From: a virus
Reading direction: 5' to 3' (one strand)
Length of the DNA: 64,000 nucleotides
IMG/VR virus record: IMGVR_UViG_2847502069_000001
Coordinates: 5,495-69,494 of that record
Numbering within the stretch: position 1 is the first letter of the stretch; each line of letters starts with the position of its first letter. The notes under the pieces are model-generated. The model did not search any database. It saw only the letters and a list, made by a program, of their open reading frames with translations, and had not been told where the DNA came from. This document shows, one piece after another, positions 41,616-64,000 of this stretch. The position numbers and the translations under genes were made by a program.

Positions 41616-41750
41616 GATTTCTATCACTGAATTTATGGCTGTTTTGATAGGGGTAGTAAAGACTAAAAAAGGACATTTAGTACGGTATCTAAGCCGTTTT
41701 TGAAAAATTATTTATTGTTGTTAAATCTAGTAAAAACAGAGGAAAACAAC

Positions 41751-42725
41751 ATGGAAATTTCAATCCAATCAGCAATTCAAGAAATGCTTTTTGATAATAA
41801 AGCAAGAGGATTGTCGAAAAATACAATTATATTCAGAGAAAAAACACTAAAGATTTTCTCTGTTTTTTTGTGCCAAAATTATATTTTAAACATTAACGAA
41901 ATCAAACCAATTCATATAAAACAATATTTAGTTGACAGACTAGAATGTGGTTACTCTGAGACAACTGTTAATGGGCATTTAAGGGTTATTAGGGCGCTAT
42001 TTTCATATTGTATTAATGAAGAATACATTAGGTATGAGGAAGCACCTATACACCGTGTTAAATGGATTCAAGAGAAGAAGACGATTGTAAATACATTTAC
42101 AGATTCAGAGATAAAAATGATGCTCCATTATACAAGAAAAAGAACCTTTCATACAATCAAGAAAACTGGAAAAGGAAGAACTGGATTTTGTACAAAATTT
42201 GTGAATGAGAGAAATTACTTGCTGTTACTTATACTTACAGACACTGGTATGAGAATAAATGAAGCATTGAGTCTAAAATTAGAAAATATTAATGATTCTC
42301 AAATTATCATAAAAAGTGGTAAAGGGAAAAAAGATAGAATTGTTCATTGTTCACCACTTGTTTATAAACAGTATTTGAAATATAATAGGGCAAAAGAAAA
42401 TTATTTTTCAAGTAATGGGATAGTACCCATTGAAAATATATTTGTAACTAAATTTGGAAAAAAATATGATTATAGGCTAGCAGAAAAAGAAATATATAAA
42501 ATAGGAAAAGCGGTGAACATTCGTGACAGTATCCGTATCTCACCTCATACATTTAGACATTATTTTGCTCAAAAATTAGTACGTGAGAATGTTGATATTT
42601 ATATGATTCAAAAGTTACTGGGACACGCTAGCATCAAGACTACTGAGATTTATCTTAGGAGTTTAAATATCGAGAATGAAATTAACAAAGTCATCAAATA
42701 CAGTCCTTTGCAGAATTTAGATTAA
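41751..42725 (+). CDS. int: Tyrosine integrase (XerC/D-like)
   Basis: GAGG RBS before ATG 41751; TGMRINE, GKGKKDR, HTFRH, LLGH, TEIY catalytic motifs. Confidence 0.95.
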   Translation: MEISIQSAIQEMLFDNKARGLSKNTIIFREKTLKIFSVFLCQNYILNINEIKPIHIKQYLVDRLECGYSETTVNGHLRVIRALFSYCINEEYIRYEEAPIHRVKWIQEKKTIVNTFTDSEIKMMLHYTRKRTFHTIKKTGKGRTGFCTKFVNERNYLLLLILTDTGMRINEALSLKLENINDSQIIIKSGKGKKDRIVHCSPLVYKQYLKYNRAKENYFSSNGIVPIENIFVTKFGKKYDYRLAEKEIYKIGKAVNIRDSIRISPHTFRHYFAQKLVRENVDIYMIQKLLGHASIKTTEIYLRSLNIENEINKVIKYSPLQNLD

Positions 42726-43145
42726 AATAAATTTTTAGATAGTGTGGATGGGATAACCTACTAGAAAACAATAATTTTTGAATTATTATATCTATAAAAT
42801 GAATGTGAATTGGTTTTATATCCTTTATGTTTCAAGTACCATATTTTTTGGGAAAAATGTTTAATTAGATTGATAGAAAATTTGTGAAATTATTAGTTAA
42901 ATCTTGTATTGATTTTGGTCTGTGGACATTTAATAATAAATATGTTTATACAAAAGATGACCCTCATTGCTAGGAGATAAAGTTACCTGATATGGTATAT
43001 ATGCCTCGAAGCAATTTTTACAAAAAAACACTATATAATTTATTACTAGTGAGATGGAGTTATTGAAATCAAGAGAGGTAAGAAGAGGAGATGTATGGTA
43101 TAATATTAATAAATTCTAATGAAAGTCAGTGTAAGGGAAGTTATT

Positions 43146-44519
43146 ATGAAGAACAAAATTGTTGGGGTGTCACTAAAATTTTCTCATATGAATTTTAAAA
43201 ATATAGATTTAATACCATTTAGTTCTTATAATTCTTTGTTGGACTATGATATAGTAATTATTGATTTGGCAGGAATCTCATCAGGATATGATTGTGATAA
43301 AGATTATAATGGGAGAGAACGATTATATTCTGGTAAGAGACGCTTATCAAATGATGATTCCTTTAAATTTTTATCTGATTTTAAAAGAAGAAGAGAAGAA
43401 ATAAAAGATTTACTAGCTTTAGGAAAAACACTTTATATAATGCCCCCTGTCGAATCTAATTTCTATATTTATTCAGGAAAAAATGAATACTCAGGTACAG
43501 GTAAAAATCGTCAAAAAACCCATATTGTATTTGAGTTCGACATTTTAGATGTTTTACCTATAAAATTAAATATGACGACAGGTTTAGGTAGCAATTTGGC
43601 GTGTTCAACGGACTCTCCGTATAGAATTTTGTTTGAAGTAAAAGGAATGAAATACTATTATAATGCATATTTTAGTACAGAGGATAACGGAATACCTGTT
43701 GCTTACATTGCAAATACAGAAAAAAATATTTCTAAAGTATTCCCAATAAATGACGGACGCCTTATTATTTTCCCATCCATATTTGATGAAGAATATTATT
43801 CGAGTGAAAAAGAATATCGAAAAGTAGTAAATAATTTCTTGCATACCATAGATGATTTAGAAGAGGAAATAAAAGTAAATCTAGAGGACTACTTTCTTCC
43901 AGAATGGGCTGATAAATATAATATTTTAACAGAAAAAAATGAAAAAGAAAAAATTGAAGAATTGAATAAAACAATAGAAAAATTAGAAATTGAAAAAGAA
44001 AAGACCAAAGACAGGTTAAGTAGCATACAAAAATATAAACTTGCCTTCACTACCTCTGGCAAGGAATTAGAAAAGATTATATATGAAATTTTTTCAGAAT
44101 TAGGATTTAGGGCTATGCCTATTGAACATAATCGAGCGGATGGAATTTTTGAATATGATGTTTTTAAAATTGTAACTGAAATTAAAGGTGTCAATGGAAG
44201 CTCTGCTGAAAAACATGGGGCCCAATTAGAAAAGTGGGTATCGGAGTTTGTTGAGAAAGAAGGAACAATTCCTAAAGCTATACTAATTGTCAATGGTTTT
44301 AGAAAGAAAGATTTATCAGCTAGAAATGAAGCCGTTTTTCCCAATCAAATGATTGACTATTCTACTAAAAGAGAACATTGTCTAATTTCTACAGTTCAAT
44401 TACTCGGAATGTTTATTGATGTGAAGAATAATCCTTCGAAAAAAGAAGCGATTGTTACTAAGTTTTTAAAAACAGTAGGAGTTTATTCCGAATATATGGA
44501 TTTTAAAGAATTTCTATAA
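43146..44519 (+). CDS. Cargo protein: unknown N-domain, coiled coil, C-terminal PD-(D/E)xK (Mrr-like) nuclease domain
   Basis: GKELEKIIYEIFSELGF...RADGIF...EIKG...QL pattern; own TGGTATAAT promoter near 43096. Confidence 0.7.
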   Translation: MKNKIVGVSLKFSHMNFKNIDLIPFSSYNSLLDYDIVIIDLAGISSGYDCDKDYNGRERLYSGKRRLSNDDSFKFLSDFKRRREEIKDLLALGKTLYIMPPVESNFYIYSGKNEYSGTGKNRQKTHIVFEFDILDVLPIKLNMTTGLGSNLACSTDSPYRILFEVKGMKYYYNAYFSTEDNGIPVAYIANTEKNISKVFPINDGRLIIFPSIFDEEYYSSEKEYRKVVNNFLHTIDDLEEEIKVNLEDYFLPEWADKYNILTEKNEKEKIEELNKTIEKLEIEKEKTKDRLSSIQKYKLAFTTSGKELEKIIYEIFSELGFRAMPIEHNRADGIFEYDVFKIVTEIKGVNGSSAEKHGAQLEKWVSEFVEKEGTIPKAILIVNGFRKKDLSARNEAVFPNQMIDYSTKREHCLISTVQLLGMFIDVKNNPSKKEAIVTKFLKTVGVYSEYMDFKEFL

Positions 44520-44570
44520 GTTTTAGGCAAGACAGGCCGGTCTATAAAAACGATTACAAATATTGAGGTT

Positions 44571-44810
44571 ATGATTACCCAAAAAGGTTTACAAGCCAAT
44601 GTGAGGGCTTCTGTGAGGTGCAGTTCACATCAATTTAGACATTATTGGACTTGTAAGAACTTAGAACTTGGACAAGACATATTTACTATCAGCAAGCTGT
44701 TAGGACACACCAATTTATCAACAACACAAATTTATCTACAAAAGTTGACCAATGAGTAATTAATTGGCTAAGGCTGTCAAATTCAGTCCACTAAAACACT
44801 TAAAATAGCA
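44571..44810 (+). pseudogene. C-terminal remnant of a second tyrosine integrase
   Basis: SSHQFRHYW...LLGHTNLSTTQIYL, degenerate FSPLKHLK end, then terminator. Confidence 0.8.
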
Positions 44811-44879
44811 AAAAGTTCTCACTTAATTGTGGGAGCTTTTTTATTTTAAACAAAACAATAATAATTTATCCATGTAATG

Positions 44880-45605
44880 GATGGGTGAATTGAGCGATAG
44901 CGAAAGAGGGCTTTAGCCCTAAGAGGTCTTCCGAGCGTTAGCGAAAATAGCACCGCAGGTGTAGAAATCTTTCTTTCTTCTCTTTCTATTTTTTCTCTTT
45001 CTTTTTCTTCTCTTTCTACCTTGCAATTTTTGTCAATTTTTTTTACACATATTGCAATAGCCATATGCAATTTTTGTATTTTTTTTTGACACTTATTGCA
45101 TTACCCATGTGCAATAAGTGTCAATTTTTTTTACATATATTGCATATGGAATTAAACTAAGCCGTGGGCTGACCACAAAACAATCTGTGAGCTGAGAATA
45201 GTTTTTAGACAGATGTTGTATAAGTGTCCAATTATATTTGTAGAAAGTTTTAAAAAACGTGTCCATTTAGTGTTCAAAACCACTATATATTATGGGGTCA
45301 GGAGAAAACACGTGAAAAACTAGCCCTAACCCTTATAATAGTAGAGGGGTTAGTTTTATTTCAAAAAAAAACACGTCACGATTTCCCTCTCAAAACCACT
45401 ATACTATGAGAGGGTAATTATATCTAAATTAATTTAAAAAAGCGTTTGGATTGTTGTTTGAAAAGGTTTATACTATGAGAGGACAAATAAAAACGTGTGA
45501 GAAATAGCTCTAAACTATCTATTAAGTAGAGGGATAAATAAGTTTAGATTGTTTTTTAAAAAAAGCGTGTCTACTTCCCTTTCAAAAGGTTTATACTATG
45601 AGAGG
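44880..45605. repeat. Origin/operator-like non-coding block
   Basis: GAGCG(A/T)TAGCGAAA twice, polypyrimidine tract, 15-bp perfect inverted repeat at 45086-45124, six ~60-70-bp units ending TATA(C/A)TA..AGAGG. Confidence 0.7.
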
Positions 45606-45659
45606 TGACGTTAAGTCAAGTTTTTAGAGTAACAAACGTAGAATTTTAATCTATTTATT

Positions 45660-46512
45660 TTAAGCACTTACCTTTTCAAATTGATTAGGTGTAAGATACC
45701 CTAAACTTTGATGGTTTCGTTTTGAATTATAAAAGGCTTCGATGTACCAGAAAATACTCTGATAGGCTTCTTCAAAGTTCTTATATTTAAATTGATACAC
45801 CCACTCTCTTTTTAAATGTCCATGCCAAGATTCAAGACTGGCATTATGATAAGGTATCCCTTCGACTGAAAGAGTGAGTCATCCCATAATACTTAAGCAA
45901 CTCTTCATACTCTAGACTCGTATACTGGCTTCCTTGGTCAGAATGAAGAATAACAGCTTCTGGATAGTCTTGTGATTTAATGGCCTTATTTAAAGTTCTT
46001 TGCACTAATTCTACAGTCATTCGCTTGCCCAAATCCCAAGCAATGACTTTTTTAGTATAACGATCCATAATGGTTGAGAGATAAGCCCATCCTTGTTGAG
46101 TAGGAATATAAGTAATGTCGGTTGACCAAACCTTATTTTTCTTTGTAGGTTCAGTCTGTATGAGATTTTTTCGATTGATGTGATCACTTAGTGAGTATCC
46201 AGGCTTAAATTTCTTAATGACTACAGACTTGAGTTGAAGTTGCTTCATTAGCTTCTGTACCAGTTTTAACCCGACTTTTTCCCCTTGTTTAAGTAGAAGA
46301 TGATGAATTTTAGGAGCACCATAGATTCCTCGGTTAGCATTGAAGAGTTGAGAAATTTTGAGTGACAGGTATTGTCTCCTTAATTGAGTTTTAGATGGAT
46401 GTCGGTTAATCCGTTCATAATAACTTGATTCAGGAACATCAAGGAGTTGACAGCTTAGTCTGACATTGAGTGCTAAAGTTTGTATGGTTTGAGCCATATC
46501 CGCAGCACTCAC
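45660..46512 (-). CDS. IS981 transposase OrfB (DDE), broken near 45855 by two 1-bp homopolymer deletions
   Basis: WSTDITYI, LHSDQGSQYTS; RRGYPYHNASLESW restored by adding one G and one C. Confidence 0.9.
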
Positions 46513-46769
46513 TTCTTTTTCTCGGCGAATATGGTCAATACTTTTTTTAAGATGTCTCGTTCTTCCTTAACTTTAGCCAGTTGTCTTTTTAATTCTAGAA
46601 AATCAGCTTTAGAGACGGAGCTTTCATTAGATTTAGAGTAGAGGTCTATCCATTTATAAATTGTTGCAGGGGCCACGTCGTATTCTTTAGACAGCTGGGT
46701 GACGGATTGACCAGAATGATAGAAGGCGATAAGGGTTTCTTTAAATTCTTTTGAGTAGCGTTTTTGCAT
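46509..46769 (-). CDS. IS981 transposase OrfA (HTH)
   Basis: SVTQLSKEYDVAPATIYKW...EERDILKK. Confidence 0.95.
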   Translation of the reverse strand: MQKRYSKEFKETLIAFYHSGQSVTQLSKEYDVAPATIYKWIDLYSKSNESSVSKADFLELKRQLAKVKEERDILKKVLTIFAEKKK

Positions 46770-46827
46770 GTTTTTGTCCTTTGTCTAAATTATACAATAG
46801 TGACTCTAAGATTTAAGGATAACATCA

Positions 46828-47526: not shown

Positions 47527-48123
47527 ATGGAAAAGACAACTACAACAACTACTAAAGCAATCGAATGGAAATCAGTTAAAGGTTTTGAAGGACAGTATGA
47601 AGTTAGTAATACTGGTTTAGTTAAATCTTTAAAAGGTAAAACAGAAAGAATCATGAAACCTAAAAGAAAGAGAATTATCAAAAAAGATGGTTCTGTTGAA
47701 CTTGGTTATGAGGAACTTATTTTGAGTGATAAAGGTGTTCAATATTCTAAACTTGTTCATAGACTTGTTGCACAGGCATTCATTCCAAATACTGAAAACA
47801 AACCAGAAGTTAATCATATAGATGAAGATAAAGGCAATAATTCAGTTGAAAATTTGGAATGGAACACACACGAGGAAAACTCAAATCACGGTACTAAGAA
47901 CATTCGTTCAGCAAATAAACAAAGTATGGCAGTTATTGGAGTAGATGAATTTGGAAATATCGTAGAAATTCACTCATCAATTCGGAGTGCTGAACGTCTG
48001 ACAGGATTTGGTCATAGTAATATTAGTGCTTGTGCAAGTGGTAAAAGTGCTAAGTATAAGAATTTAGAATGGTTCAAAATTGATAATGAAATGTTTGATT
48101 TGTTGGTCGGTGCAGAATTTTAA
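47527..48123 (+). CDS. NUMOD4-HNH-NUMOD1 homing endonuclease
   Basis: WKSVKGFEGQYEVSNTG, VHRLVAQAFIPN...VNHIDEDKGNN...NLEW, SIRSAERLTG. Confidence 0.93.
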   Translation: MEKTTTTTTKAIEWKSVKGFEGQYEVSNTGLVKSLKGKTERIMKPKRKRIIKKDGSVELGYEELILSDKGVQYSKLVHRLVAQAFIPNTENKPEVNHIDEDKGNNSVENLEWNTHEENSNHGTKNIRSANKQSMAVIGVDEFGNIVEIHSSIRSAERLTGFGHSNISACASGKSAKYKNLEWFKIDNEMFDLLVGAEF

Positions 48124-48283: not shown

Positions 48284-49120
48284 TTAGCTATTTGATGTAA
48301 ATGTTTTGATGTCTTTGTTTGAATAAAGAGGGTCTAGTTCAATTTTATTTTTAGTGTTAGAAATATTAATAAGGTAAATTATTTTATTACCATCATTAGA
48401 ACCAATAAAACCATTAGCGTAACCAATAATTTTATTATCACTTTTTAAAGGAATTTGGGTATCTGCATATGCATTAAAGGAATAATATTGAGGAGATTCA
48501 TAAAAATCTTCTCCTTTAAATTTAATATTTCCTGAAAAGTTAATAGATTGATAACTTAATTTTCCATCTTTTAAATTTTGAGAAAAAGTTGGTTTATAGG
48601 TGTAAACACCCCCAAAAAAGCCAGAAGAACCTTCACCAAGACCTACTTTTGCTTTATCTTTAAGACTCGTGTTTACATTCATATATGCTTCATATAAATT
48701 TGACTGCAAGGTTCTATCAAGGTATAGTTGCAAGATTTGGTTGAACGTAGGATATTTTGAATCTAAATAAAGTGATGAAGGGCTAATTTTAGCAAAAAAA
48801 TAACCTTTATCCATATTTTGATAAGTGAATGCATTACTTATTTTAGAATCTAATTGTGATTGGTTTGTTGCAATTACAGCAGTAATATGTGCTTCATCAC
48901 TAATCATATCATCAGCTACAGGTGTAACTTCAAACCAGATTTCATCTTTTAAATCATCAGTAAAGTGTTGAGAAATAGTTTCGTTTTGCTCAATTTTCTT
49001 AGTTTCACTTACCTTTGATTTACTATTAGATGTTGAGTCAGTTTTTTTATTTTCACATCCAGTAAATAATACTAGAGTTGATAACAATATTAAGGTTCCA
49101 ACAATTTTGATTTTTTTCAT
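48284..49120 (-). CDS. Lipoprotein, candidate superinfection-exclusion moron
   Basis: MKK signal, lipobox LFTG-C, Ser/Thr/Lys linker; opposite strand to lytic genes. Confidence 0.8.
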   Translation of the reverse strand: MKKIKIVGTLILLSTLVLFTGCENKKTDSTSNSKSKVSETKKIEQNETISQHFTDDLKDEIWFEVTPVADDMISDEAHITAVIATNQSQLDSKISNAFTYQNMDKGYFFAKISPSSLYLDSKYPTFNQILQLYLDRTLQSNLYEAYMNVNTSLKDKAKVGLGEGSSGFFGGVYTYKPTFSQNLKDGKLSYQSINFSGNIKFKGEDFYESPQYYSFNAYADTQIPLKSDNKIIGYANGFIGSNDGNKIIYLINISNTKNKIELDPLYSNKDIKTFTSNS

Positions 49121-49244: not shown

Positions 49245-50189
49245 ATGAATAAATTATCAGCATTAAATAAAGTTGAAGAATATATTGCAGAAGATTTGAG
49301 TTGGTTAAAGACTGGGGCTAGAGAAGATACTGATTGGTTAATGTTTGTAGCTTATAGGATTAAATCAATGATGTTGAATAGTGTTTACAAAAAGAATCAA
49401 GCTATCATGACTTATGAGAAACAAGAGTTGAATGAAGATTACAATGACTTCTTGGATATGCTTTGGACAATGCAAGATTCTGGGATATTTAAATTTGATT
49501 GGGATAGGATTTGGAAACAGAGAGACTATCAAGAGATAGTTGATAACATAGGTTTAGTAACTGAAAGATTTGGTTATGGTGTTGCTGTTGATTTAATGAA
49601 TCTGATTAATGAGTTTAGATTTATGCAGAGTGATTCAGAAGAGTTCATAGCTTTGTATTCTGAATATGAGAAGCACATGTTGCCATTGCTGATGGCTGGT
49701 CTCAGTAAAGGACTGGATGCAGTTGATGATTCAAAGACTGGTAAAGAGAAAGCTAAATATATAAATAGAGTTTTGTTGACTGAATTTGTTCGATTGCAGA
49801 AAGAAAGAGATGGATATATTCTTATAAGAGAAAGTGGTAAGCGATATTATATCCAACCTGAATTGAAAGATGATATAGATTGCTGGAAGCTATTGACTAA
49901 ACAAACATTTAAGTTTGTAGGTATTGATAACTTTAAAAGTGTGTTGACCAGAAAGCAATATCAGTTCTTGATTGAAGCTTATATGATTGTTAGAGGACAC
50001 TATGATAATAAAGATATTGAATGGTTTAGGTTTGATAAGAAAGGTAATGTTAAACTGAATAAGCGCAAGCTTAGTGGTGAGTTAGGAGTTAGTGAAGTTA
50101 ACTTTAATCAAACAATGAAAAGGATTCAAGAAAGAATTGATAAAGTATTTGCTGATGTGTTTAGTGAGTACTTGAAGAATAGTAGATAG
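49245..50189 (+). CDS. Putative transcription regulator with C-terminal sigma-70 region-4-like HTH
   Basis: LTRKQYQFL...KRKLSGELGVSEVNFNQTMKRIQERI; followed by a terminator. Confidence 0.55.
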   Translation: MNKLSALNKVEEYIAEDLSWLKTGAREDTDWLMFVAYRIKSMMLNSVYKKNQAIMTYEKQELNEDYNDFLDMLWTMQDSGIFKFDWDRIWKQRDYQEIVDNIGLVTERFGYGVAVDLMNLINEFRFMQSDSEEFIALYSEYEKHMLPLLMAGLSKGLDAVDDSKTGKEKAKYINRVLLTEFVRLQKERDGYILIRESGKRYYIQPELKDDIDCWKLLTKQTFKFVGIDNFKSVLTRKQYQFLIEAYMIVRGHYDNKDIEWFRFDKKGNVKLNKRKLSGELGVSEVNFNQTMKRIQERIDKVFADVFSEYLKNSR

Positions 50190-50459
50190 AGAGTTGATTA
50201 GGTTCAACTCTTTTTTTATATTATTTTTTGTTAAGGAGTGTCATATATTTATTTATATGTTGTAAGAAAGAATAGGAGAAGAGAATATGAAGATTACAAT
50301 TGAACAAGATATCCACACAGAATTTGTTGACGGTAAGATTACAGCAGACCAATCAACCACAGTAGAATTTGATTTTAATGATTCAGTTAAAGAGAAAGAT
50401 ACTTCTATCAATGCTTTAGTTAAAGCAATCAATGAAGAGTTTAAAGGAGGTCGTGCTTA

Positions 50460-50666
50460 ATGATAACAATACTTTTAAATGTATTAATTGCTTTTGCAAT
50501 ATTTCTTTTAGTTATGTTTGCAGTCGTGATTGTATTTGCTTTTGTTAAAACTATTAAGACTAAGAAGGAAGCTAACAAGATTATCAATAAGACTTTCAAT
50601 ATTGACAGCTCAAACCCAAATGACTTAGCTAATATGATTAGAAAAAAGATTGATGAGGATTTGTAA
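50460..50666 (+). CDS. Small membrane protein
   Basis: AAGGAGG RBS; single TM helix. Confidence 0.7.
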   Translation: MITILLNVLIAFAIFLLVMFAVVIVFAFVKTIKTKKEANKIINKTFNIDSSNPNDLANMIRKKIDEDL

Positions 50667-51200: not shown

Positions 51201-51465
51201 TAAAGGGTGTGAGTGTGTGTGGAAATAAAAATAAAATAAATAAATTTAAGAATAAAAAATAATTTTTTTGAAAAAAATAAAAAAAATAATCCCCCCATCA
51301 ATGAAATTTATGGGGTAGGTTTATGCACGAGGGGGTCAAAAGAAAAACTCCCCCAAAGTTTTTGAGCCAAAAATTTTCAGCAAAAATCTCAGCAAATCAA
51401 AATAAATCTTGGAGAATCCAAGTAAATCTAAGAGAATACTAAGACACTTATAGAAAGGGTGCTAA
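51200..51465. other. Probable cos region of prophage 2
   Basis: A-rich tract then C6/G4/G5/C5 runs immediately upstream of terS. Confidence 0.45.
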
Positions 51466-55283: not shown

Positions 55284-55341
55284 CTTGCCAAATGGTGATA
55301 ACCCAAATGGCAATACCTTTAATGAAAAGGAGGACTAAGAC

Positions 55342-55857
55342 TTGAAATTAGTTGAAAATATCGCAAAAGTTGAACTTATCGAAAATGAGTCAGGTGATAA
55401 ATCTATTTGTGCAATTGCTTCATACGTTCACAAAACAAACAACAATGATTTGTATTTAGACGGTGATGTAATTGAATTTAAGAGAGAAGTTTACCCATTC
55501 TTATTTAATCACGGTAAGTCAGCAGATGACTTTCTTGGTGAGACTCGTACAAATTATGATGCAGAACTAGATGCTTATGTATCAGATATTAATGTTTACG
55601 ACAATAGACCTGAAATCATCAAAGCTATTGAGAATGGAGTTTATGATTCGGTTTCTATTTCATATTACATTACTGAATATTCTTTCGGTGAAGAAGATGA
55701 AATTATTGTTAAACATGCAATTATGAATGAAATATCTCTTGTTTCTGTCGGTGCTGACCCAGAAGCTAAACTTATGAATAATGAACTTGCAGATGAACGC
55801 AAAGCATTCATCGAAGCTAAAAATAGATTGAAGGAGATTAAATCTTACTATGAATAA
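55342..55857 (+). CDS. Prohead protease
   Basis: FLFNH, SVSISY, EISLVSVGADP. Confidence 0.88.
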   Translation: MKLVENIAKVELIENESGDKSICAIASYVHKTNNNDLYLDGDVIEFKREVYPFLFNHGKSADDFLGETRTNYDAELDAYVSDINVYDNRPEIIKAIENGVYDSVSISYYITEYSFGEEDEIIVKHAIMNEISLVSVGADPEAKLMNNELADERKAFIEAKNRLKEIKSYYE

Positions 55858-56998
55858 ACTTGACAAGATTGAACTTGAAAAATCTATCAAAGATTTACAA
55901 GCTCGTAAAAATAAACTCTCAGAATTAATTCTTGCTGAAAACTCAGTTGAAAATGCTGAAAAATTACATGCCGAAGCCAAAGAAAATGCAAAAGCACTTG
56001 AATTGGCTGAAATCAAATTAAAAGAAAACTCACAAATTAAAGGAGAACCTATTATGTCTAAATATCTTGAAACTAAAAACTCATCACGTGACTTCATTAA
56101 CATTCTTAAAACTGCTGGTGATAAAGAAGCCGTTGTTAATGCTTGGGGTGCTAAACTTGCTGAAAATGACCTTAAAGTAGAAGACAAAGGATTGCTTTTA
56201 CCAAAACGTTTAGTTGACTCAATCGAAACTGCTCTTGTTGAAGCTAACCCAGTCTTCAAAGTATTCCAAATGACTCACGTTGGTGCATTGCTTGTACAGA
56301 AGGGCTTGAAATCGACTGACGAAGCTAAAGTGCACGTTGAAGGAACTGAAAAAGTATTACAAAATGCCGTTCTTACAACTGATGCAATCACTCCACAATT
56401 GATTTATAAAGCTCAATCAATTTCAACTCGTACTAAAGAAGTTACTGAAAACTTTGAAGAAGTTTACGCTGTTGTAGTTGCTGAACTTACACAAGCAATT
56501 GTAAACAAAGCTGTTGATTTGGCTCTTGTTGAAGGTACTGGTAATGAAGATGGTTTCCTTTCAATCATGAACGAAACTGATGCTGAAAAAGTTAAAGAAA
56601 TCAAATCTACTACTCTTGTTGATGGTATTGAAGATGCAACTGACTTTGTTCGTGGTCGTGAAGGTCGTAAATTCCTTATTGTTACTGCTGAACAACGTAA
56701 AGCTTTGCTTAAAGAAGTTCGTGCTTTGGTTGCTCCTGCTCGTGTTCGCAATGATGATGCAGAACTTGCAAGTGAAGTTGGTGTTGATGAACTTATTGTT
56801 TATACAGGTTCAAAAGCTATCAAACCTATCGTTCTTGTTGACCAAGCTTACAAAATTGACATGAAAGACCTTACTAAAGTTGATGCTTTTGAATGGAAAA
56901 CAAACGGTAACGTTATCCTCATGGAATCGCTCAGCGCTGGTAAAATGAACAAAATCAAAGGTGCTTCATTCGTAACTGTTGCACCAGCAACTAAATAA
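55850..56998 (+). CDS. Major capsid protein, Skunavirus-like
   Basis: AELTQAIVNK.VDLALVEG, ASEVGVDE.IVYTGSKA, DLTKVDAFEWKTN. Confidence 0.93.
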   Translation: MNKLDKIELEKSIKDLQARKNKLSELILAENSVENAEKLHAEAKENAKALELAEIKLKENSQIKGEPIMSKYLETKNSSRDFINILKTAGDKEAVVNAWGAKLAENDLKVEDKGLLLPKRLVDSIETALVEANPVFKVFQMTHVGALLVQKGLKSTDEAKVHVEGTEKVLQNAVLTTDAITPQLIYKAQSISTRTKEVTENFEEVYAVVVAELTQAIVNKAVDLALVEGTGNEDGFLSIMNETDAEKVKEIKSTTLVDGIEDATDFVRGREGRKFLIVTAEQRKALLKEVRALVAPARVRNDDAELASEVGVDELIVYTGSKAIKPIVLVDQAYKIDMKDLTKVDAFEWKTNGNVILMESLSAGKMNKIKGASFVTVAPATK

Positions 56999-57116: not shown

Positions 57117-57392
57117 ATGAAAGACGATTATAACTATATTAAAACCTATTGTGGCATTCCTTTAAATGTCACTTTATATGATGAAACTATCAAACTAAAT
57201 AAACAAATTGCTTTAACTCGACTAGCTATTGCTGGTGTATCAACAAATGAAAAAAATCCAATTGTTCAACAATATATTTCTACATTTTGTCGTTTTCAAC
57301 TTGTTTCAGAACCAACTTCTGTATTTGTAAAAATGGAAACTGACCGTATGAAAGAAATGATTGAACTGCTTACTTATGGAGGTGTTGAATGA
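57117..57392 (+). CDS. Head-tail connector (p2 ORF7-like)
   Basis: YIKTYCGIP...ELLTYGG. Confidence 0.8.
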   Translation: MKDDYNYIKTYCGIPLNVTLYDETIKLNKQIALTRLAIAGVSTNEKNPIVQQYISTFCRFQLVSEPTSVFVKMETDRMKEMIELLTYGGVE

Positions 57393-57703
57393 TATTTTCT
57401 CAGGTAACACTTGAAATAAGTGAAAAGAAGAAAAAGCCTAATGGTGCTGAGACCAGTATTATTAGTCCAGTAACATTACCAGCCAAAAAAGAAAAGATTG
57501 TTCAAAATAGACTAGATTCTTTCTCAATGCAAGGTTTAAAGAAAGTTGTGAGATATTCTTTAAACAACGTTGGAGAGTTTGAATTTAAAACTTTTGATTA
57601 CTTTACTGATGAAAATGGCACTCGATTCATGCGAACTGTTTGGGAACGAGACCCAAAAAATAACAAACTTATTTTAGAGGGTGAAGTTGCCAACGGCATC
57701 TAA
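57389..57703 (+). CDS. Head closure protein (p2 ORF8-like)
   Basis: MIFSQVTL...WERDPKNNKLILEG. Confidence 0.82.
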   Translation: MIFSQVTLEISEKKKKPNGAETSIISPVTLPAKKEKIVQNRLDSFSMQGLKKVVRYSLNNVGEFEFKTFDYFTDENGTRFMRTVWERDPKNNKLILEGEVANGI

Positions 57704-57716
57704 GAAAGGAGTAGTT

Positions 57717-58055
57717 ATGGCATTTAATTCATTTATGGACTGGAAAGAAGCAGTTGATAAGATTGGTTTTAATGATGTAATTTTTGGTGTTAAAGATACG
57801 ATTGAACCAAATACACTTTATATTTCTCTTGCTGGTTCGAAGGTTATAGGAAGTGATAACTTTAAATTTGTTATTGGTTATTCTTATAACGTTGTTGCAA
57901 GCGTTCCAGATGTTGATAGTCATTTAGTTAAAGAACTGTCAAATTTGCTTGACTCAGGTTTAGAAATGATAGATTTTTCTAATACAAGTCACTTGTACAA
58001 TTTCTCTGGAAGTATCTACTTACCAGTAGGTGCAAGAGGAGGTTCTTTTGAATAA
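57717..58055 (+). CDS. Tail terminator (p2 ORF9-like)
   Basis: NDVIFGVKDTIE...SHLYNFSGSIYLP. Confidence 0.8.
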   Translation: MAFNSFMDWKEAVDKIGFNDVIFGVKDTIEPNTLYISLAGSKVIGSDNFKFVIGYSYNVVASVPDVDSHLVKELSNLLDSGLEMIDFSNTSHLYNFSGSIYLPVGARGGSFE

Positions 58056-58413
58056 TAACTTAGACATTAAGGCAATCAGTGAACAGCTTGCAAAAGATGT
58101 TACTGATAGAGTTGCCAATTTCATTGAGATTCAAACAAAAGCAGAAGCTCAGAAAGCAAGTGGTAGACAAAAGACTTTTAAAGCACACGGTAAAACATAT
58201 ACGTATGCTCGATATAGTAACACTGGTCAACTTGCTAGAAACTTGAAAATAGATAAAAAAGGCAAGTATAAAGTAGTTCATGATGGTAGACGGTCTGATT
58301 ATTCAGATGGAACTTATCATGGAATGTATTTCTTGGTTGAAAAACGAGGAGAAAGCGCAATTAAAAAGATTCTAAAAGATGCTAAGTCTTACACAGAATC
58401 AACAAAATTATAG
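58048..58413 (+). CDS. Tail completion protein (p2 ORF10-like)
   Basis: HGKTYTYARYSNTGQL...YHGMYFLVEK; GGAGG RBS before TTG. Confidence 0.8.
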   Translation: MNNNLDIKAISEQLAKDVTDRVANFIEIQTKAEAQKASGRQKTFKAHGKTYTYARYSNTGQLARNLKIDKKGKYKVVHDGRRSDYSDGTYHGMYFLVEKRGESAIKKILKDAKSYTESTKL

Positions 58414-58428: not shown

Positions 58429-59103
58429 ATGGCTTTAAATTTAAATTATGGAGACCGCAAGATTTTTTGGGGAGACGAAGGCTTGCTCATCGGTAAGATT
58501 GATGTAACTGCTGGAAAAGCTACTGCTAAAAATATTCAACTTGCAACTGGTATGGTATCAGTTTCAGCGATGGAAGATAGCGCAGAAGTTGCCAATTTCC
58601 CAGCGGATAACAAACCTGACCACGGCTCTAAAAAAGGTGCAACACTCTTACAAGGTGAAATGGCATTTATGCAAATTGATGAACCAGTTGGTGAAACTTT
58701 GCTTGGACAAGTTAAATCTGAGAATGGTCTTGGTTGGGTACCAACTGGTGTTTATACTGAACATATTGCTCAATATGTGAATCAGGCTCAAAAACACACA
58801 GCAGAAGGTGAAGTAATCAATGGCTATAAAATTGTTGTTTATCCAGCACTTAAAGCAACTGGTGAAGGAACATTTGAAAGCGAGACAGATAATTCTGACG
58901 GTGTTGACCCGATTCAATATACAATTCCATTGCAAGCAACAGCATCACCTAACTATAAATCACAAGGTAATACACCAGCTCAAATGACCTATGAAGTATG
59001 GGGTAAACAAGCTGAGGAATTTGAAAAAATGATGGAAAAAGAACTTTTCATTATGTTCCCAGATACTGTGATTCCTGACGGTTCAAAACCAGCAGGCAAA
59101 TAA
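58429..59103 (+). CDS. Major tail protein, Skunavirus-like, without C-terminal Ig extension
   Basis: PDHGSKKGATLLQGEM, ESETD..DGVDPIQ, YEVWG.QA. Confidence 0.9.
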   Translation: MALNLNYGDRKIFWGDEGLLIGKIDVTAGKATAKNIQLATGMVSVSAMEDSAEVANFPADNKPDHGSKKGATLLQGEMAFMQIDEPVGETLLGQVKSENGLGWVPTGVYTEHIAQYVNQAQKHTAEGEVINGYKIVVYPALKATGEGTFESETDNSDGVDPIQYTIPLQATASPNYKSQGNTPAQMTYEVWGKQAEEFEKMMEKELFIMFPDTVIPDGSKPAGK

Positions 59104-59138
59104 TAACTAAAGAATAAAGAGAAAGAGGTATAAGCCCT

Positions 59139-59417
59139 ATGAAACAATTATCTACAGCACGTAAATTCAAAATGATTACAAATAAAGATATATTTAAAGC
59201 AAGCAAAGAACTTGAAAAAACAATGAAAGATGATGAATCAAACGATACTACTGAAAATGTGGAATTTGTTCAATATGGTTTGTACCTTGCTTTTTACAAT
59301 CCTGATTTAACTAAAGCTAAACAAGAGTTTAGTGATTTCATGAAAACTGGTGAATTTGATACTGGTGAAGAAACAATTAAATCATTGATGGATAAATTTA
59401 AAGCCACTTTCGGCTAA
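59139..59417 (+). CDS. Tail chaperone (p2 ORF12-like)
   Basis: KQLSTARKFKMIT...EFVQYGLYLA. Confidence 0.88.
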   Translation: MKQLSTARKFKMITNKDIFKASKELEKTMKDDESNDTTENVEFVQYGLYLAFYNPDLTKAKQEFSDFMKTGEFDTGEETIKSLMDKFKATFG

Positions 59418-59488
59418 TAAGAGGGAATGGCGGTACTGTTTAGTATCGCTTTTTCTTTTGTTTTATTTTAAAAGAAAGGGGTGATTTT

Positions 59489-59974
59489 ATGAAATTAAAA
59501 GATGCAATAAGATACTACGAACTGACAGGTTCTGATATTTTGACTGATTTAGAGATTCAATCTAAATATATAACTGCTCTTGAATTTGATTATGTCTATG
59601 ATGATTTTACGGATGTCATGGAAAAGCTCTATGAAAATCTTTTGGTGTTATGGGCAGACTCTCATGAAGTAAATGAAGAAACAGAAATGCCTACAAAGGA
59701 GTATTTAACAGGTTTATATCTTGCAAATATTCCAAAGCCAAAACAAGAGGATGAAAAAGAGGTAGTTTTTGAGAGACCTAGCAGATTTAAACAAAAGAAA
59801 CAAGAACAAGAAAATAAGACTATGAATCTTGTAGTTTCACTTGTTAATTCAGATATGAATATTCAACAGTTTTTTGATTTTGAAATTGAATTAGTGGTTG
59901 ACATTATAAATAGTGTTTCAGAAAAGAGGGAAGCAGAAGAGAAGAAAAGAAAATCTAAGAAACGGAGGACGTAA
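59489..59974 (+). CDS. Tail assembly protein (p2 ORF13 position)
   Basis: Synteny between chaperone and TMP. Confidence 0.7.
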   Translation: MKLKDAIRYYELTGSDILTDLEIQSKYITALEFDYVYDDFTDVMEKLYENLLVLWADSHEVNEETEMPTKEYLTGLYLANIPKPKQEDEKEVVFERPSRFKQKKQEQENKTMNLVVSLVNSDMNIQQFFDFEIELVVDIINSVSEKREAEEKKRKSKKRRT

Positions 59975-59977
59975 AAT

Positions 59978-62458
59978 ATGGCTGGAAATGCAAAGTTTGA
60001 AGTAGAGATATACGGTAATACCGTCCAGTTCGAAAACTCCTTAAAAGGCATAAATAGCGCAATGTCTAGTTTGAAGGGTGAAGCCAATCAACTAAGAAAA
60101 GAATTAAGGTTTGACCCAACAAATGTAACTGCTATGACAAAGTTACAAGACAACTATAAACAACAATTAGAACAAACTAAAAATAAAGCTACAGCTCTTA
60201 AGAAAGAACTTGCAGGGGTTGATAGTTCTACACCAGATGGACAAAAGAAATTCATTCAACTTTCTAAGGCAATTCAAGATTCTGAGTTAAAAGCCAATTA
60301 TCTTGAAAGAGATATAAAGCAATTAGATTCATCTATCTCAAGTGGTAATTTCAAAGTTGATTTAAAGACCGATGATGCTGAAAGTAAGCTTTCAAGAGTC
60401 AAAAAAGGCTTTAGTGGCATGAAAGAAATTGCTATTGGTGCTTTTCGTGAAATTGGTGCAAATATTACTAATGCTCTTGGTAATAAAATGGGTGACTGGA
60501 TAAACGATACAAAAGCCACTCAAAAAGCAACCATTGCTTTAAAGAACACAATGGATTTTTCTGGTGTTGGTGGTGATTTTGAATCACTTAGTAAACGGAT
60601 GGGGCAAGTTGCCAAAGATACAAATGCCAATACGGAAGATGCTTTAAAACTAGCAAGTACATTTATTGGACTTGGTGACAATGCTCAGGTTGCAGGCGAT
60701 AAAGTTGAGAATATTATTAAAGCCAACCAAGCCTTTGGTGGTTCTGGTGAACAATTACAAGGAGTAGTTCAAGCCTATGGGCAAATGTCCGCAAGTGGTA
60801 AAGTAACGGCTGAAAATATTAATCAGTTAACTGATAACAATACAGCTTTAGGTTCGGCACTTAAAAAAACAGTTATGGAAATGAACCCACAACTTAAACA
60901 ATTTGGTTCTTTTGCAGGTGCTAGTGAGAAAGGTGCTATTTCTGTTGAGATGCTTGATAAAGCTATGCAAAAGCTTGGTAAAGCAGGTGGTGGAGGAGTT
61001 GAAACAATTGATGATTCCTTTGCAAGTTTAGATGAGACAATCTCTCTTGCTTTACTACCAGCACTTGATGCAATTACACCAGTAGTTACTGATATTGTTA
61101 ATTCAATTGCTGACAGTATACCTAGTATTGCAAGTTCTTTGGGTAATATTGTCACTTATTTAAAAGAGAATTGGGATTGGATAAGCAAAATACTTATTGC
61201 AATTGCTGGATTTATAGCAGTTGTGGCAATAATATTAACCATTCAAAAAGCTGTCATGGCTGTTGCAACAGCGTTTGCTTTCCTAACAAGTCCAATTGGT
61301 TTAGTTATCTTGGCAATAGGCGCTTTGATTGCAATCGGTGTCTTAATTTGGCAAAACTGGTCAACAATATCAAGTTATGCTCAATCAATTTGGGGAGGAA
61401 TTAAAGACTTCTTTGCTGGTTTGGGAACTTGGTTTGGTGAGCTATGGACAGGTATTTTATCTTTCTTTAGCTCAGTTTGGCAAGGAATGCTGACCATTGT
61501 TACAACTATTTGGGATGGCATAAAAGCCTACTTCTCAACATTAATTACTTTCTATTCAACAATCTTCAATGCAATTGTAACAGTTGTTAGTACAGTATTT
61601 ACAGCAATAGGTAATTTTGCTTTGACAGCATTCAATGCAATTGTTTCATTCTTCTCACCTCTTGGAAGTGTGATTGGTGCAATCTTTGATTTAGTTATAG
61701 CAGTCTTTCAACTTGGTTGGGAACTCATTTTGGCTCTTGGTCGTGGTGCATGGCAAGTGATTCAAGCAATTTGGTCTGGTCTCGTAGGATTCTTCTCACC
61801 GATTTGGAATGCAGTATCTAGTGTTGTATCTACAGTTTTCTCAGCAATTGGTAGCTTTGCACAAAGTGCTTGGTCAGTCATTGTTTCAGTATTTTCTGTT
61901 GTTGCTGGATGGTTCTCAGGAATCTTTAACACAGTGAGAGGTGTAGTATCAGGAGTATTTAGTGCTTTTGGTTCATTCGCAAGTTCAGCTTGGGGTTCTA
62001 TTACAGGAGTGTTTAGCGGAGTTGCTGGATGGTTTGGCGGAGTGTTCAACGCAATCAAAGGAACTATAAGTGGAGTATTTAGTGCTTTTGGAAGTATAGC
62101 TCAATCTGGATACAATGCCATAACAGGAGTGTTTAGCGGTATTGGTTCATTCTTCTCAGGAATTTTTGACGGTGTTAAAAACACAGTAGACAGTGTTCTT
62201 GGCGGAATCTCAGGAACTATAAAAGGAATCACAGACACTATCAATGGTATTACTGGCAAAGTTAAGGGATTGTTTAAAGGCTCAACAGTAACTGTTGCAA
62301 GAGAATTTGCAGACCTTAAATCAAGAGGACTTGTTCAAAATAGTGCAAGTAGTTCAACAGCAAACTATCAAAATACATTCAATATTCAAGCAGGTAGCCA
62401 AGATACAACCGCTTTAGCACGTGCTATCAAGCGTGAATTTGACCTAGGAAGGGCATAG
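59978..62458 (+). CDS. Tape measure protein, Skunavirus-like
   Basis: FEVEIYGNT..FENSLKG, QAYGQMSASGKVTAENINQLTDNNTALGSALK; aromatic repeat region. Confidence 0.93.
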   Translation: MAGNAKFEVEIYGNTVQFENSLKGINSAMSSLKGEANQLRKELRFDPTNVTAMTKLQDNYKQQLEQTKNKATALKKELAGVDSSTPDGQKKFIQLSKAIQDSELKANYLERDIKQLDSSISSGNFKVDLKTDDAESKLSRVKKGFSGMKEIAIGAFREIGANITNALGNKMGDWINDTKATQKATIALKNTMDFSGVGGDFESLSKRMGQVAKDTNANTEDALKLASTFIGLGDNAQVAGDKVENIIKANQAFGGSGEQLQGVVQAYGQMSASGKVTAENINQLTDNNTALGSALKKTVMEMNPQLKQFGSFAGASEKGAISVEMLDKAMQKLGKAGGGGVETIDDSFASLDETISLALLPALDAITPVVTDIVNSIADSIPSIASSLGNIVTYLKENWDWISKILIAIAGFIAVVAIILTIQKAVMAVATAFAFLTSPIGLVILAIGALIAIGVLIWQNWSTISSYAQSIWGGIKDFFAGLGTWFGELWTGILSFFSSVWQGMLTIVTTIWDGIKAYFSTLITFYSTIFNAIVTVVSTVFTAIGNFALTAFNAIVSFFSPLGSVIGAIFDLVIAVFQLGWELILALGRGAWQVIQAIWSGLVGFFSPIWNAVSSVVSTVFSAIGSFAQSAWSVIVSVFSVVAGWFSGIFNTVRGVVSGVFSAFGSFASSAWGSITGVFSGVAGWFGGVFNAIKGTISGVFSAFGSIAQSGYNAITGVFSGIGSFFSGIFDGVKNTVDSVLGGISGTIKGITDTINGITGKVKGLFKGSTVTVAREFADLKSRGLVQNSASSSTANYQNTFNIQAGSQDTTALARAIKREFDLGRA

Positions 62459-62461
62459 GAA

Positions 62462-63820
62462 ATGGTAAGACAATATAGAATACATACAGACCTAGATGGG
62501 TCTAATAATAAAATATATGATATGACTAATGGTCTTATTAGGTTTTACCAGCCTAGTGACCTAGGAATTATCAATAGTACAAATATTTGGCAAAGTCAGG
62601 GGATTGGGGTTATGGGAAATAACAATATTTCTCATCCTGATATTGATTTTAAGTTTGAGACTTTCGGAAGTAGCTTAGAAGAAAACTACAGAATTTTTAA
62701 TGAGTTTATCAATAGTATTATCAAACAAAAATATATCACTTTAGAATATACCAATGAAATTGGTACTTTCTATGCAGATATTCAACTTTCTAAAATCACT
62801 AAAACAGAGGGATATGGATTTGATGGACAGTTCTCAGAAACAATTTCATTTATACCAGTAAATATGTGGTATCAGTATGAACAATTGAAATTTTCTAAGG
62901 TTCAAAATGGTGAAATTGGTGGTAATACTAAGATTTATGGAAATAAAGAAACGACTGTTTATCCGAATTTGAATTTGTTAGATGGTACTAAAGATTTTAG
63001 CGGGACTTGGAACAATTCAACACTTTGGACTGATGACGGTACATATAACGGCTTGAAGGTAAGAAAACGAACAGCAGCACAAAGAGGTACTTATAAAATC
63101 TGGACTGTTCCAACTGACGGAACATATACTTTTTCATGTTACATTAAGAGTTCCGGTCCTAACGCTAAGGTACACGGTGCGTTTCAAGTTAATGGTATTC
63201 GTGAGGTTGATAGAACCTTTGGAGATAATTTTGATTGGAAACGTGATTCGCTTACTAGAACGTTAAAAGCTGGTGATTCTATTGTTTATAGCTATGAAAT
63301 GGCTGGAAGTGCTGTTGATTCAACCATTTGGGTAGCAGGATATAAAATTGAATCAGGCTCAATCGCCACTCCTTGGATGCCAAGTAAGAGTGAAGTAAAA
63401 ACATCTGACTATAGAAATTATGGAAGCTATAAATATGATTACACTTATTTTGGTGAAGATAATATTGAACGTTTCTCAAAATGGAAAATTGATGATGGTA
63501 TCTTTAGCTTCACAGCTCGTATGACACCAAGCCAAAACTTGGAAAATATGAGTGACTACGGTGTAAGATTCTTAGATGAACAATTTAATGAATACACAGC
63601 CCTCATCTTTGGTAATACAACCAAACCAGATTCAATTCAATTTAACACAGATGTTAATGATGAATACTATCAAGCTCAAATTGGTACAAGTACAATTAAC
63701 ATGTTTTCGGCTTTGAATTATAAAAGATTTAGAACACGGCTTATTCAAAAAGGAACAATGGAACTTGTAAATGTTGATGTAGTAGAAATGAATGTTAAAA
63801 GAAAGGTGGAATTTGTCTAA
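62462..63820 (+). CDS. Evolved Dit, Skunavirus-like, with inserted carbohydrate-binding module
   Basis: MVRQY.IHT.LDG...FETFG.SLEENY and KRKVEFV ends; YPNLNLL...GSIATPWMPS insert. Confidence 0.9.
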   Translation: MVRQYRIHTDLDGSNNKIYDMTNGLIRFYQPSDLGIINSTNIWQSQGIGVMGNNNISHPDIDFKFETFGSSLEENYRIFNEFINSIIKQKYITLEYTNEIGTFYADIQLSKITKTEGYGFDGQFSETISFIPVNMWYQYEQLKFSKVQNGEIGGNTKIYGNKETTVYPNLNLLDGTKDFSGTWNNSTLWTDDGTYNGLKVRKRTAAQRGTYKIWTVPTDGTYTFSCYIKSSGPNAKVHGAFQVNGIREVDRTFGDNFDWKRDSLTRTLKAGDSIVYSYEMAGSAVDSTIWVAGYKIESGSIATPWMPSKSEVKTSDYRNYGSYKYDYTYFGEDNIERFSKWKIDDGIFSFTARMTPSQNLENMSDYGVRFLDEQFNEYTALIFGNTTKPDSIQFNTDVNDEYYQAQIGTSTINMFSALNYKRFRTRLIQKGTMELVNVDVVEMNVKRKVEFV

Positions 63821-64000
63821 TGCTTGAATATAACTTATATGATAATTTTAACCCTAATATTTATTCTTTCGCAACTCACGCAGAAGCAAGTAATGCTCCA
63901 AAACTTCCTAATCCTAAAGCTCGTGGGGTTATTATGAACTATGAGTTATGGCAAACAGGATACAAATACACTAGCTCAGGAACTATTTCAACTGATGTTG
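63820..64000 (+). CDS. Tal / baseplate hub (p2 ORF16-like), 5' part only
   Basis: ATG overlapping the Dit stop; MLEYNLYDNFNPN...PNPKAR...NYELWQTGYKYTSS; not in ORF track. Confidence 0.85.
   Translation, partial: MLEYNLYDNFNPNIYSFATHAEASNAPKLPNPKARGVIMNYELWQTGYKYTSSGTISTDV

Follow-up and report, generated by a model that had tools for sequence, protein, structure and literature searches.

A probable cryptic Lactococcus lactis prophage with a virion module homologous to that of the virulent skunaviruses

The DNA analysed here (the window) is a stretch of 64,000 nucleotides, bases 5495-69494 of the 73,883-bp IMG/VR provirus record IMGVR_UViG_2847502069_000001, the last ~4.4 kb of which lie beyond it. 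This "provirus" record fuses two prophages and the intervening chromosome into one entry. Our subject is one of the two, a 936-type element that starts at the 3' end of a host DUF59 gene, runs ~4.6 kb beyond the window end and measures ~26.96 kb in this record, versus 28.4 kb in the chromosome CP010050.1. Its genes for packaging, the head, the tail and adhesion have homologues, in collinear order, in the virulent genera Skunavirus and Uwajimavirus, while its early genes are unrelated to theirs and run in the direction of the late genes. We consider it very probable that the element is a cryptic, non-viable prophage of ~27 kb, belonging to an undescribed family of temperate L. lactis siphophages.

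The open reading frames (ORFs) of the window between 51466 and 64000 found their best matches, in order and one for one, in the late regions of sk1 (Skunavirus) and PLgW-1 (Uwajimavirus). The order is terS, terL, HNH, portal, protease, major capsid protein (MCP), ORF7-10, major tail protein (MTP), ORF12-13, tape measure protein (TMP), Dit and Tal. An earlier note on this DNA had recognised the same genes in the same order as in sk1, p2 and bIL170, a reading borne out by the collinearity with sk1 and PLgW-1 and by Skunavirus-specific Pfam and PHROG labels. The late module and the region preceding it are laid out as follows.

50667..51465 (+), non-coding, with a cos-like site (a C-run, then GCACGAGGGGGTC) near 51330-51400
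51466..51996 (+), terS (PF07141 Phage_term_sma, 7e-18), 32% identical to sk1 ORF1
51993..52193 (+), ORF of 66 amino acids, kept in the sibling proviruses introduced below, with no sk1 counterpart
52211..53839 (+), terL, 59% identical to Skunavirus terL
53852..54136 (+), HNH endonuclease (phrog_144), the equivalent of sk1 ORF3, 66% identical to sk1
54151..55284 (+), portal gene, frameshifted, 59% identical to sk1
55342..55857 (+), prohead protease (phrog_80), 47% identical to sk1 ORF5
55850..56998 (+), major capsid protein, 54% identical at most to deposited 936-type or Uwajimavirus proteins
57117..58413 (+), head-tail connectors equivalent to sk1 ORF7-10 (phrog_1428, 1429, 1484 and 1440), 39-63% identical to sk1
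58429..59103 (+), major tail protein in a short form of 224 amino acids (phrog_3791 and phrog_1433, ~1e-70), 50% identical to sk1 ORF11
59139..59974 (+), equivalents of sk1 ORF12 and ORF13 (tail assembly chaperones; PF20962 Phage_p2_ORF12), 51% and 37% identical to sk1
59978..62458 (+), tape measure protein of 826 amino acids, 37-44% identical to those of sk1 and PLgW-1
62462..63820 (+), "evolved" Dit with Dit_N and Dit_C parts and an insert of ~160 amino acids (residues 163-321)
63820..64000 (+), 5' part of the Tal gene, which extends past the window and is frameshifted at window-equivalent position 64303

Past the window end the collinearity goes on through the rest of Tal, ORF17, the receptor-binding protein (RBP) and the holin. 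The late proteins were 32-66% identical in amino acid sequence to their sk1 counterparts, and synteny with PLgW-1 was accompanied by 27-67% identity. More specifically, terL matched Skunavirus terL at 59% identity over its full length, the next-best deposited phage reaching 28%, and a tblastn search with the MCP returned 380 matched records, all of them Lactococcus 936-type phages or Uwajimavirus, at 54% identity at most. The N- and C-terminal parts of Dit were 49-55% identical to sk1 ORF15. Precomputed Pfam labels were likewise Skunavirus-specific (HCP2_Skunalikevirus, Skunalike_TailTerm, Phage_p2_ORF12, L_lac_phage_MSP, Dit_N/C, Caud_bapl16 and Caudo_bapla_N). The possibility that the best matches would lie with P335 or other temperate groups was tested and Skunavirus held: P335 phages were absent among the 380 MCP matches, and terL was ~23% identical to that of the P335-like phage D6867. 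MTP, TMP, Dit, Tal and RBP all stand alongside head and packaging genes, which separates the element from satellites such as phage-inducible chromosomal islands (PICIs) and capsid-forming PICIs.

At the DNA level, megablast of the 12.6-kb late region against deposited phages yielded only matches of 50-200 bp, all inside the Dit insert. The region from Tal to the right end had no megablast match among deposited phages, nor did the adhesion modules of the CP010050 copy and of a sibling provirus (G001, below) among 50,697 phage records. The module is thus diverged rather than near-identical, as originally described, and the element does not reach the genus-level nucleotide identity to sk1-type phages (about 70% genome-wide). 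The further idea that it serves as a gene reservoir for lytic 936 phages received almost no support at the DNA level, given only the short matches in the Dit insert and adhesion modules without a match. A tblastn search with 32 sk1 early and middle proteins found no homologue in the element or in four related proviruses (G001-G004), in agreement with the reported absence of such genes upstream of the late module.

The layout ahead of terS resembles the end of the sk1 genome (a run of eight Cs, then GCACAAAGGACT at the terminus) and that of PLgW-1, and by this likeness the site near 51330-51400 is a putative cos. Upstream of it, in non-coding DNA at 50800-51150, a motif resembling a tRNA T-arm (GGTTCGATTCC, or a close variant of this) occurs three times.

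The left end of the element comprises the following features.

41283..41615 (+), host DUF59 / FeS_assembly_P gene (PF01883, 5.8e-23), the 3' end of which is the integration target
41554..41614 (.), attL core, a 61-bp direct repeat of the DUF59 3' end
41751..42725 (+), Int-A, an apparently intact tyrosine integrase of 324 amino acids (Pfam Phage_integrase PF00589, 1.3e-29)
43119..44519 (+), AT-rich cargo gene of 457/466 amino acids, absent from the siblings G001-G003
44521..44803 (+), vestige of the native integrase Int-B, with an ORF at 44571-44759 for its last 62 codons (phrog_1 integrase, 2e-8)

A tyrosine integrase beside a chromosomal DUF59 gene had been noted previously, and the two Pfam matches and the 61-bp att repeat confirm it; the start given for the integrase, 41700, was replaced by the most likely ATG at 41751. 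The right end was also found. The attR copy lies beyond the window at L013/L014 16056-16117 (L and G numbers are our own for contigs and genomes), equivalent to window positions of about 68517-68578, and no third copy of the core was found inside the element. In genomes with an empty site, an identical DUF59 protein adjoins FtsW directly (e.g. CP015904.2), and this empty site (L030) aligns to both junctions over the same 61-62 bp; unoccupied sites were seen in L022, L024, L025 and L028-L030. A search of other assemblies recovered the same insertion, with the same flanks and with Dit and terS proteins identical to those here, in three or more complete chromosomes (CP010050.1, CP015902.2 and CP142589.1), which we take to be chromosomes of L. 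lactis subsp. lactis, as well as in ENA, JGI and Logan contigs. Logan contigs further placed DNA of the element in food and fermentation metagenomes from 12 studies.

The other prophage of the record, at window positions 1-32000 and ~10 kb upstream of the 936-type element, is P335-like and ~85% identical over 42% of its length to the Lactococcus phages D7138, D7893 and D6867. Judged by this neighbour, by the occurrence of the element in the three chromosomes and by an insertion sequence (IS) within it, IS981, that is 99.6% identical to copies on L. lactis plasmids, the host is assigned as L. lactis.

The element has relatives that are catalogued, not described. Three siblings, G001 (UViG 2878865731_000007, equal to GCA_002866835.1 PKRZ01000002.1), G002 (3300031112_000334) and G003 (3300012196_000006), share with it an MCP at 95-98% identity, the early genes, a lipoprotein gene, a gene for a 314-amino-acid protein and a holin-putAbiC pair, and like it they have no endolysin. 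They differ from the window copy in having an intact early gene of 403 amino acids, no IS981, intact portal and Tal genes, and other integrases and sites. G003 (MCP 98%) lies in a 765-kb contig directly after enolase, between two perfectly matching 112-bp copies of the eno 3' end, and spans ~28.7 kb with all its virion ORFs intact; its right end consists of the holin, putAbiC, AbiH, a homologue of a 215-amino-acid gene and attR. G001 (MCP 95%) also has intact virion ORFs and occupies a third site with a further integrase, Int-C (372 amino acids, minus strand), together with AbiH, and G002 carries Int-B with differing versions of early genes. The family therefore comprises three integrase types at three chromosomal sites. 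Dit inserts and RBPs vary among its members, with RBP identities of 52-99%.

Between members, the virion genes showed ratios of nonsynonymous to synonymous substitution (dN/dS) of 0.04-0.16 at dS values of 0.1-0.75. Together with the several sites and integrases, this purifying selection leads us to conclude that the family evolved as working virions and integrated repeatedly. As a separate observation, variable slots of the family are filled with genes of abortive-infection type, such as AbiH in G003 and, in G002, a DUF6036/AbiEii-type nucleotidyltransferase gene (L127 7041-7553) located between the 314-amino-acid gene and the small ORFs preceding cos.

More distant members were also found. 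L044, whose MCP is 65% identical to that of the element, carries an integrase of its own 5 kb ahead of terS, L005 is a contig from an L. plantarum metagenome-assembled genome (MAG; MCP 61%), and G004 (MCP 59%) carries an Amidase_5 endolysin. G005 (IMGVR_UViG_3300036846_001600; L131/L132, L046) is a 34.6-kb provirus, 100% complete by CheckV. Besides a minus-strand integrase of classical type, it carries another integrase-like gene, a replisome organiser (Rep_Org_C) and an endolysin like that of sk1 (46%), and its MCP shares 64% identity with that of Skunavirus. Of the temperate cousins of the 936 phages, it is in our view the one most likely to be alive. For none of these relatives did a deposited phage come closer than 54-64% in the MCP.

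A tree of terL, portal and MCP resolved three groups. The first unites the L. lactis family and its sister G004 (80/82), the second L044 and L005, and the third (99/100) PLgW-1, G005 and Skunavirus, the last two of which group together at 99/99. The root is uncertain because the outgroup, Javan457 (terL 28%, the nearest outside the group), sits on a very long branch, and the splits hold wherever the root is placed. The closest temperate relative of Skunavirus is G005 and not the element in the window. A root outside the third group would place the virulent genera within a set of temperate lineages. The earlier note had proposed a temperate sister or ancestor-like relative of the dairy phages, or a hybrid. 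A temperate lineage related to Skunavirus is what stands of this; the copy at hand is defective, its integrase is not native and G005 is closer to Skunavirus. In a more tentative scenario, which we consider possible but rather doubtful, the G003 type, the G001 type and G005 would represent a live, inducible temperate stock from which virulent Skunavirus and Uwajimavirus originated when the lysogeny module was lost; the L. lactis branch would make do without an endolysin of its own by using holin-putAbiC, a host autolysin or the lysin of a co-resident P335 prophage.

Skunavirus contigs, some near full length (L006-L009 and L011), were encountered in assemblies labelled Staphylococcus pseudoxylosus, Staphylococcus caeli, Oceanibaculum pacificum, Paenibacillus kribbensis and a Clostridia MAG. 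One of them, L008, places inside Skunavirus in the tree, and their presence looks like contamination of those assemblies.

The copy in the window bears several lesions. Over 22.8 kb it is 99.95% identical to the CP010050 copy, relative to which one A is missing in the portal gene at 55146 (AAA to AA), ending the ORF at 55164 after 337 amino acids instead of the 377 found intact in L013, L020 and L032. One G is missing in Tal at window-equivalent 64303, which splits it into 199 and 183/206 amino acids versus 374 in L013 and L020. Several independent assemblies contain the same two frameshift alleles. Elsewhere the damage differs between copies: TMP is split in L016, MCP is split in L033 (CP142589.1) and L017 has several breaks. 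As separate copies bear different inactivating lesions, the virion genes are not under selection at the DUF59 locus.

The remaining features of the element lie between the integrase region and the late operon.

44813..45605 (.), early regulatory remains with tandem repeats, 95% identical to G003 1875-2355; their end is an IS981-adjacent deletion of 1393 bp
45606..46827 (-), IS981 (IS3 family), with an AAG target duplication, inside the early gene of 371/403 amino acids
46831..47498 (+), last 222 codons of the early gene that IS981 disrupts, putatively for a winged-helix replication initiator
47527..48123 (+), NUMOD4/HNH_3 homing endonuclease (Pfam; phrog_59, 1.5e-42), 40% identical to PLgW-1 Orf36
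48284..49120 (-), lipoprotein of 278 amino acids with an LFTGC lipobox, 98-99% conserved in G001 and G003
49245..50189 (+), protein of 314 amino acids just upstream of the late operon, with a weak C-terminal HTH_10 match
50287..50666 (+), two small ORFs (57 and 68 amino acids) conserved in G001-G003, the second with an N-terminal transmembrane segment

IS981, the boundaries of which were set from three other copies, is present in every copy seen at the DUF59 site. When the IS and the AAG duplication were taken out of the CP010050 copy, a single frame of 371 amino acids was restored, and the gene is uninterrupted, at 403 amino acids, in G001 and G003. In the window the adjoining 1393-bp deletion (L032 2745-4137, relative to CP010050) removes a helix-turn-helix (HTH) gene of 87 amino acids, a gene of 64 amino acids and the first 149 codons of the 371-amino-acid gene. 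A 2-bp deletion near 45854 (45844-45860) also cuts the transposase orfB to 222 amino acids, versus 279-284 elsewhere, so this IS981 copy is probably dead too. Taken together, the sequence predicts a dead, immobile remnant in which replication and assembly would be impossible, and in which only the accessory genes and Int-A could plausibly still act.

The early genes of the element lie on the plus strand, co-directional with the late genes. The N-terminus of the interrupted early gene gave a weak match to DnaD-like loader PHROGs (~1e-3), and its atlas features resemble winged-HTH, HTH_36 and RepL-like clusters, which is a lead only. Similarly, the atlas features of the 314-amino-acid protein are like those of phage Sigma70_r2/r4 clusters at 0.94-0.96, again only a lead, and the protein is possibly a sigma-like regulator of the late genes. 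For the 278-amino-acid lipoprotein, weak PHROG matches included a superinfection-exclusion family; by sequence, the minus-strand lipoprotein genes, of which the ancestral phage would have had one or two, are candidate superinfection-exclusion genes. The ancestor would have been a cos-type temperate siphophage with a rightward early operon of small HTH proteins, then the putative winged-helix initiator, then the homing endonuclease, and with the sigma-like 314-amino-acid protein preceding the late operon.

Two tandem repeats, of 43 bp (2.8 copies, L032 2162-2283) and 70 bp (2.2 copies, L032 2667-2821), were observed at window positions of about 45030-45605, where they are partly deleted. Both carry promoter-like hexamers and occupy the gene-poor stretch that separates the end of the integrase from the early genes; a role as operators, as iterons or as small transcription units is conceivable. 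No CI/Cro-type repressor was detected with Pfam or PHROGs in the window copy or in G003, only small HTH ORFs and the tandem repeats.

Past the holin, the right end holds a gene of the putAbiC family (PF16872, 4e-12), a 215-amino-acid gene with a weak GIY-YIG motif, and attR. Searches with Pfam, PHROGs and the atlas found no endolysin among the holin-distal and all minus-strand genes of the window copy and G003. Every member of the L. lactis branch has the holin followed by putAbiC without an endolysin (L013 13794-15193; L137 12440-13827; L142 12343-13734), while the distant relatives G004 and G005 possess endolysins. A family that lacks a lysin and yet is under purifying selection is a puzzle.

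Int-A is not the original integrase of this lineage and was probably acquired by a swap of the integration module. Integrases at the same DUF59 site in CP032435, CP109652 and CP122980 match it at 94-97% identity, the Int-B of G002 and G003 at only 32-35%. The vestige downstream of the cargo gene, by comparison, is 95% identical in amino acid sequence to the C-terminus of the full 311-amino-acid Int-B of those two siblings and 46% identical to Int-A. DNA homology to the Int-B siblings starts at window position 44521, inside Int-B (44521..44803 corresponds to G003 650-931), and stops ~10 bp past the stop codon of the 215-amino-acid right-end gene; these bounds imply that one contiguous piece of the circular map was replaced. 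A remnant of the Int-B (eno) att core was searched for in the element and not found.

We infer the following order of events. The ancestor would have carried the family integrase Int-B. A foreign segment with attP(A), Int-A and the 457-amino-acid cargo gene would then have replaced the stretch from after the right-end gene, through attP(B), to about codon 216 of Int-B, and Int-A would have integrated the resulting genome at the DUF59 3' end, giving the 61-bp duplication. IS981 would later have entered the main early gene, the putative replication initiator, in the ancestor of all the DUF59-site copies seen, after which the window lineage would have lost 1.4 kb beside the IS and gained the 1-bp frameshifts in portal and Tal.

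The cargo gene lies where GC content is low (27.6% at window 42-44 kb) and matched nothing in Pfam or PHROGs. As the same slot holds AbiH in related Int-A remnants and in G001, it may be a defence gene. In CP032435, CP109652 and CP122980, Int-A sits in 4-kb stretches between the same 61-bp cores with AbiH and IS cargo and no virion genes. These stretches also hold pseudogenised copies (84-92%) of the 215-amino-acid gene and pieces of the early region of the phage, with IS981 at the edge of the deletion, on which grounds we interpret them as what extreme deletion has left of a prophage of this kind, and not as unrelated islands. Going by sequence features, the genes of the window copy that could still work are Int-A, the cargo gene, the lipoprotein gene, the putAbiC-family gene and the 215-amino-acid right-end gene, kinds of gene that a host may keep for phage resistance.

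Other accounts of the locus have to be set against that of a decayed prophage. That the window copy is an intact, inducible temperate phage might be argued from the full-length Int-A, the well-preserved att repeats and the open state of most virion ORFs; we think it very unlikely, since IS981 splits a gene conserved in the family, 1.4 kb of early genes are deleted, portal and Tal are frameshifted relative to a 99.95%-identical copy and there is no endolysin. It is improbable, to a lesser degree, that the locus combines two independent things, namely an Int-A defence island that owns the att sites and an unrelated, integrase-less 936-like remnant that landed inside it. Such an origin would fit the truncation of the phage's own integrase and the occurrence of Int-A with AbiH and IS cargo, without virion genes, between the same cores in CP032435, CP109652 and CP122980. 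Against it, the element has no internal att copy, its attR-adjacent right-arm gene is of a family found at the end of the Int-B and Int-C prophages too, and the replaced segment is contiguous in the circular map; the small islands themselves, with their pseudogenised right-arm gene, early-region fragments and edge IS981, look like deletion remnants.

We attach hardly any weight to a domesticated, phage-derived producer of particles (gene-transfer-agent- or PBSX-like) kept by the host. A complete virion module without a recognisable set of replication and lysogeny-control genes, at one locus in many strains, would agree with domestication; independent inactivating lesions in portal, Tal, TMP and MCP among the copies speak against it, as do the siblings at other sites with other integrases, which point to mobility instead. 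An assembly chimera, or contamination of a bacterial assembly by a lytic 936 phage, is scarcely credible. The window does derive from a 73.9-kb IMG/VR provirus record, and Skunavirus contigs do contaminate unrelated assemblies (L006-L009). The sequence is, however, only 32-66% identical at the amino acid level to any Skunavirus, and the same junctions, att duplication and flanks recur in three complete NCBI chromosomes and in independent ENA, JGI and Logan contigs. The chimeric join without att duplication that had been raised as a possibility was rejected on that account.

Some points weigh against the interpretation as a decayed member of a temperate family. The functions given to the 371/403- and 314-amino-acid proteins derive from weak matches. 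As the L. lactis subfamily lacks a recognisable endolysin, plaque formation and lysis can only be presumed even for the "intact" siblings. No repressor or excisionase was identified in any family member, and temperate regulation is therefore assumed from the integrases and the integrated state alone. Lastly, an incoming Int-B phage recombining with a resident Int-A element would produce a structure identical to that left by a module swap in a free genome.

Skunaviruses are called strictly virulent in recent papers (PMC12282274, 2025; PMC6105707), and in a 2026 survey of Lactococcus prophages they appear only as CRISPR targets (PMC13657430). In the open-access literature we found nothing relevant on temperate or prophage forms of 936/Skunavirus or on PHASTER-style labels, and no deposited phage covering any of these temperate lineages was found. 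The earlier note, which likewise knew of no described temperate lactococcal group of this type, agrees with this result. A decaying prophage is an ordinary kind of element; it is the temperate lineage with a 936-type virion that appears undescribed.

The 936 phages, or skunaviruses, are the main cause of phage failure in dairy fermentations, and their virion module also circulates in temperate, integrated relatives within L. lactis and other lactococci. This offers an evolutionary context for the group, in which the virulent genera may be nested among temperate lineages. Prophages of this class are likely to be mislabelled by P335-centred tools and surveys. The lipoprotein, putAbiC-family and 457-amino-acid cargo genes, along with the AbiH genes of the siblings, are candidate resistance determinants against skunaviruses, whose virion proteins are homologous to those of the element.

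Compared with known systems, the element has most in common with Skunavirus (sk1, p2 and bIL170, virulent cos-type siphophages of L. lactis). The two share the late gene order from terS to holin and Pfam families derived from p2 and sk1 structures, and the likeness extends to the HNH gene after terL, to Dit, Tal, ORF17 and RBP, and to the cos-like layout ahead of terS. In contrast to Skunavirus, the element has an integrase and att sites, is integrated, has a shorter MTP and TMP and lacks an endolysin, nucleotide-level similarity and the sk1 early and middle genes, including Sak, SSB and RuvC. Its early genes are co-directional with the late genes, whereas those of Skunavirus are divergent. 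Uwajimavirus (PLgW-1 and PLgY, of L. garvieae) shows the same late synteny, and Orf36 of PLgW-1 is the 40% identical counterpart of the NUMOD4/HNH gene; unlike the element, it is virulent, has a Sak/SSB/RuvC early region and an endolysin, and joins Skunavirus and G005 in the tree. The P335 group (TP901-1, Tuc2009 and bIL285, among others) resembles the element in consisting of temperate L. lactis siphophages with a tyrosine integrase and integration at the 3' end of a gene, and differs from it in an unrelated virion module, CI/Cro switches and endolysins. As to its present state, the cryptic prophages e14 and rac of Escherichia coli K-12 are comparable, being att-bounded, integrase-bearing remnants that decay by IS insertion, deletions and frameshifts while accessory and defence genes are kept. 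The element differs from these in that most of its virion genes are still readable and that near-identical copies with all virion genes intact exist elsewhere.

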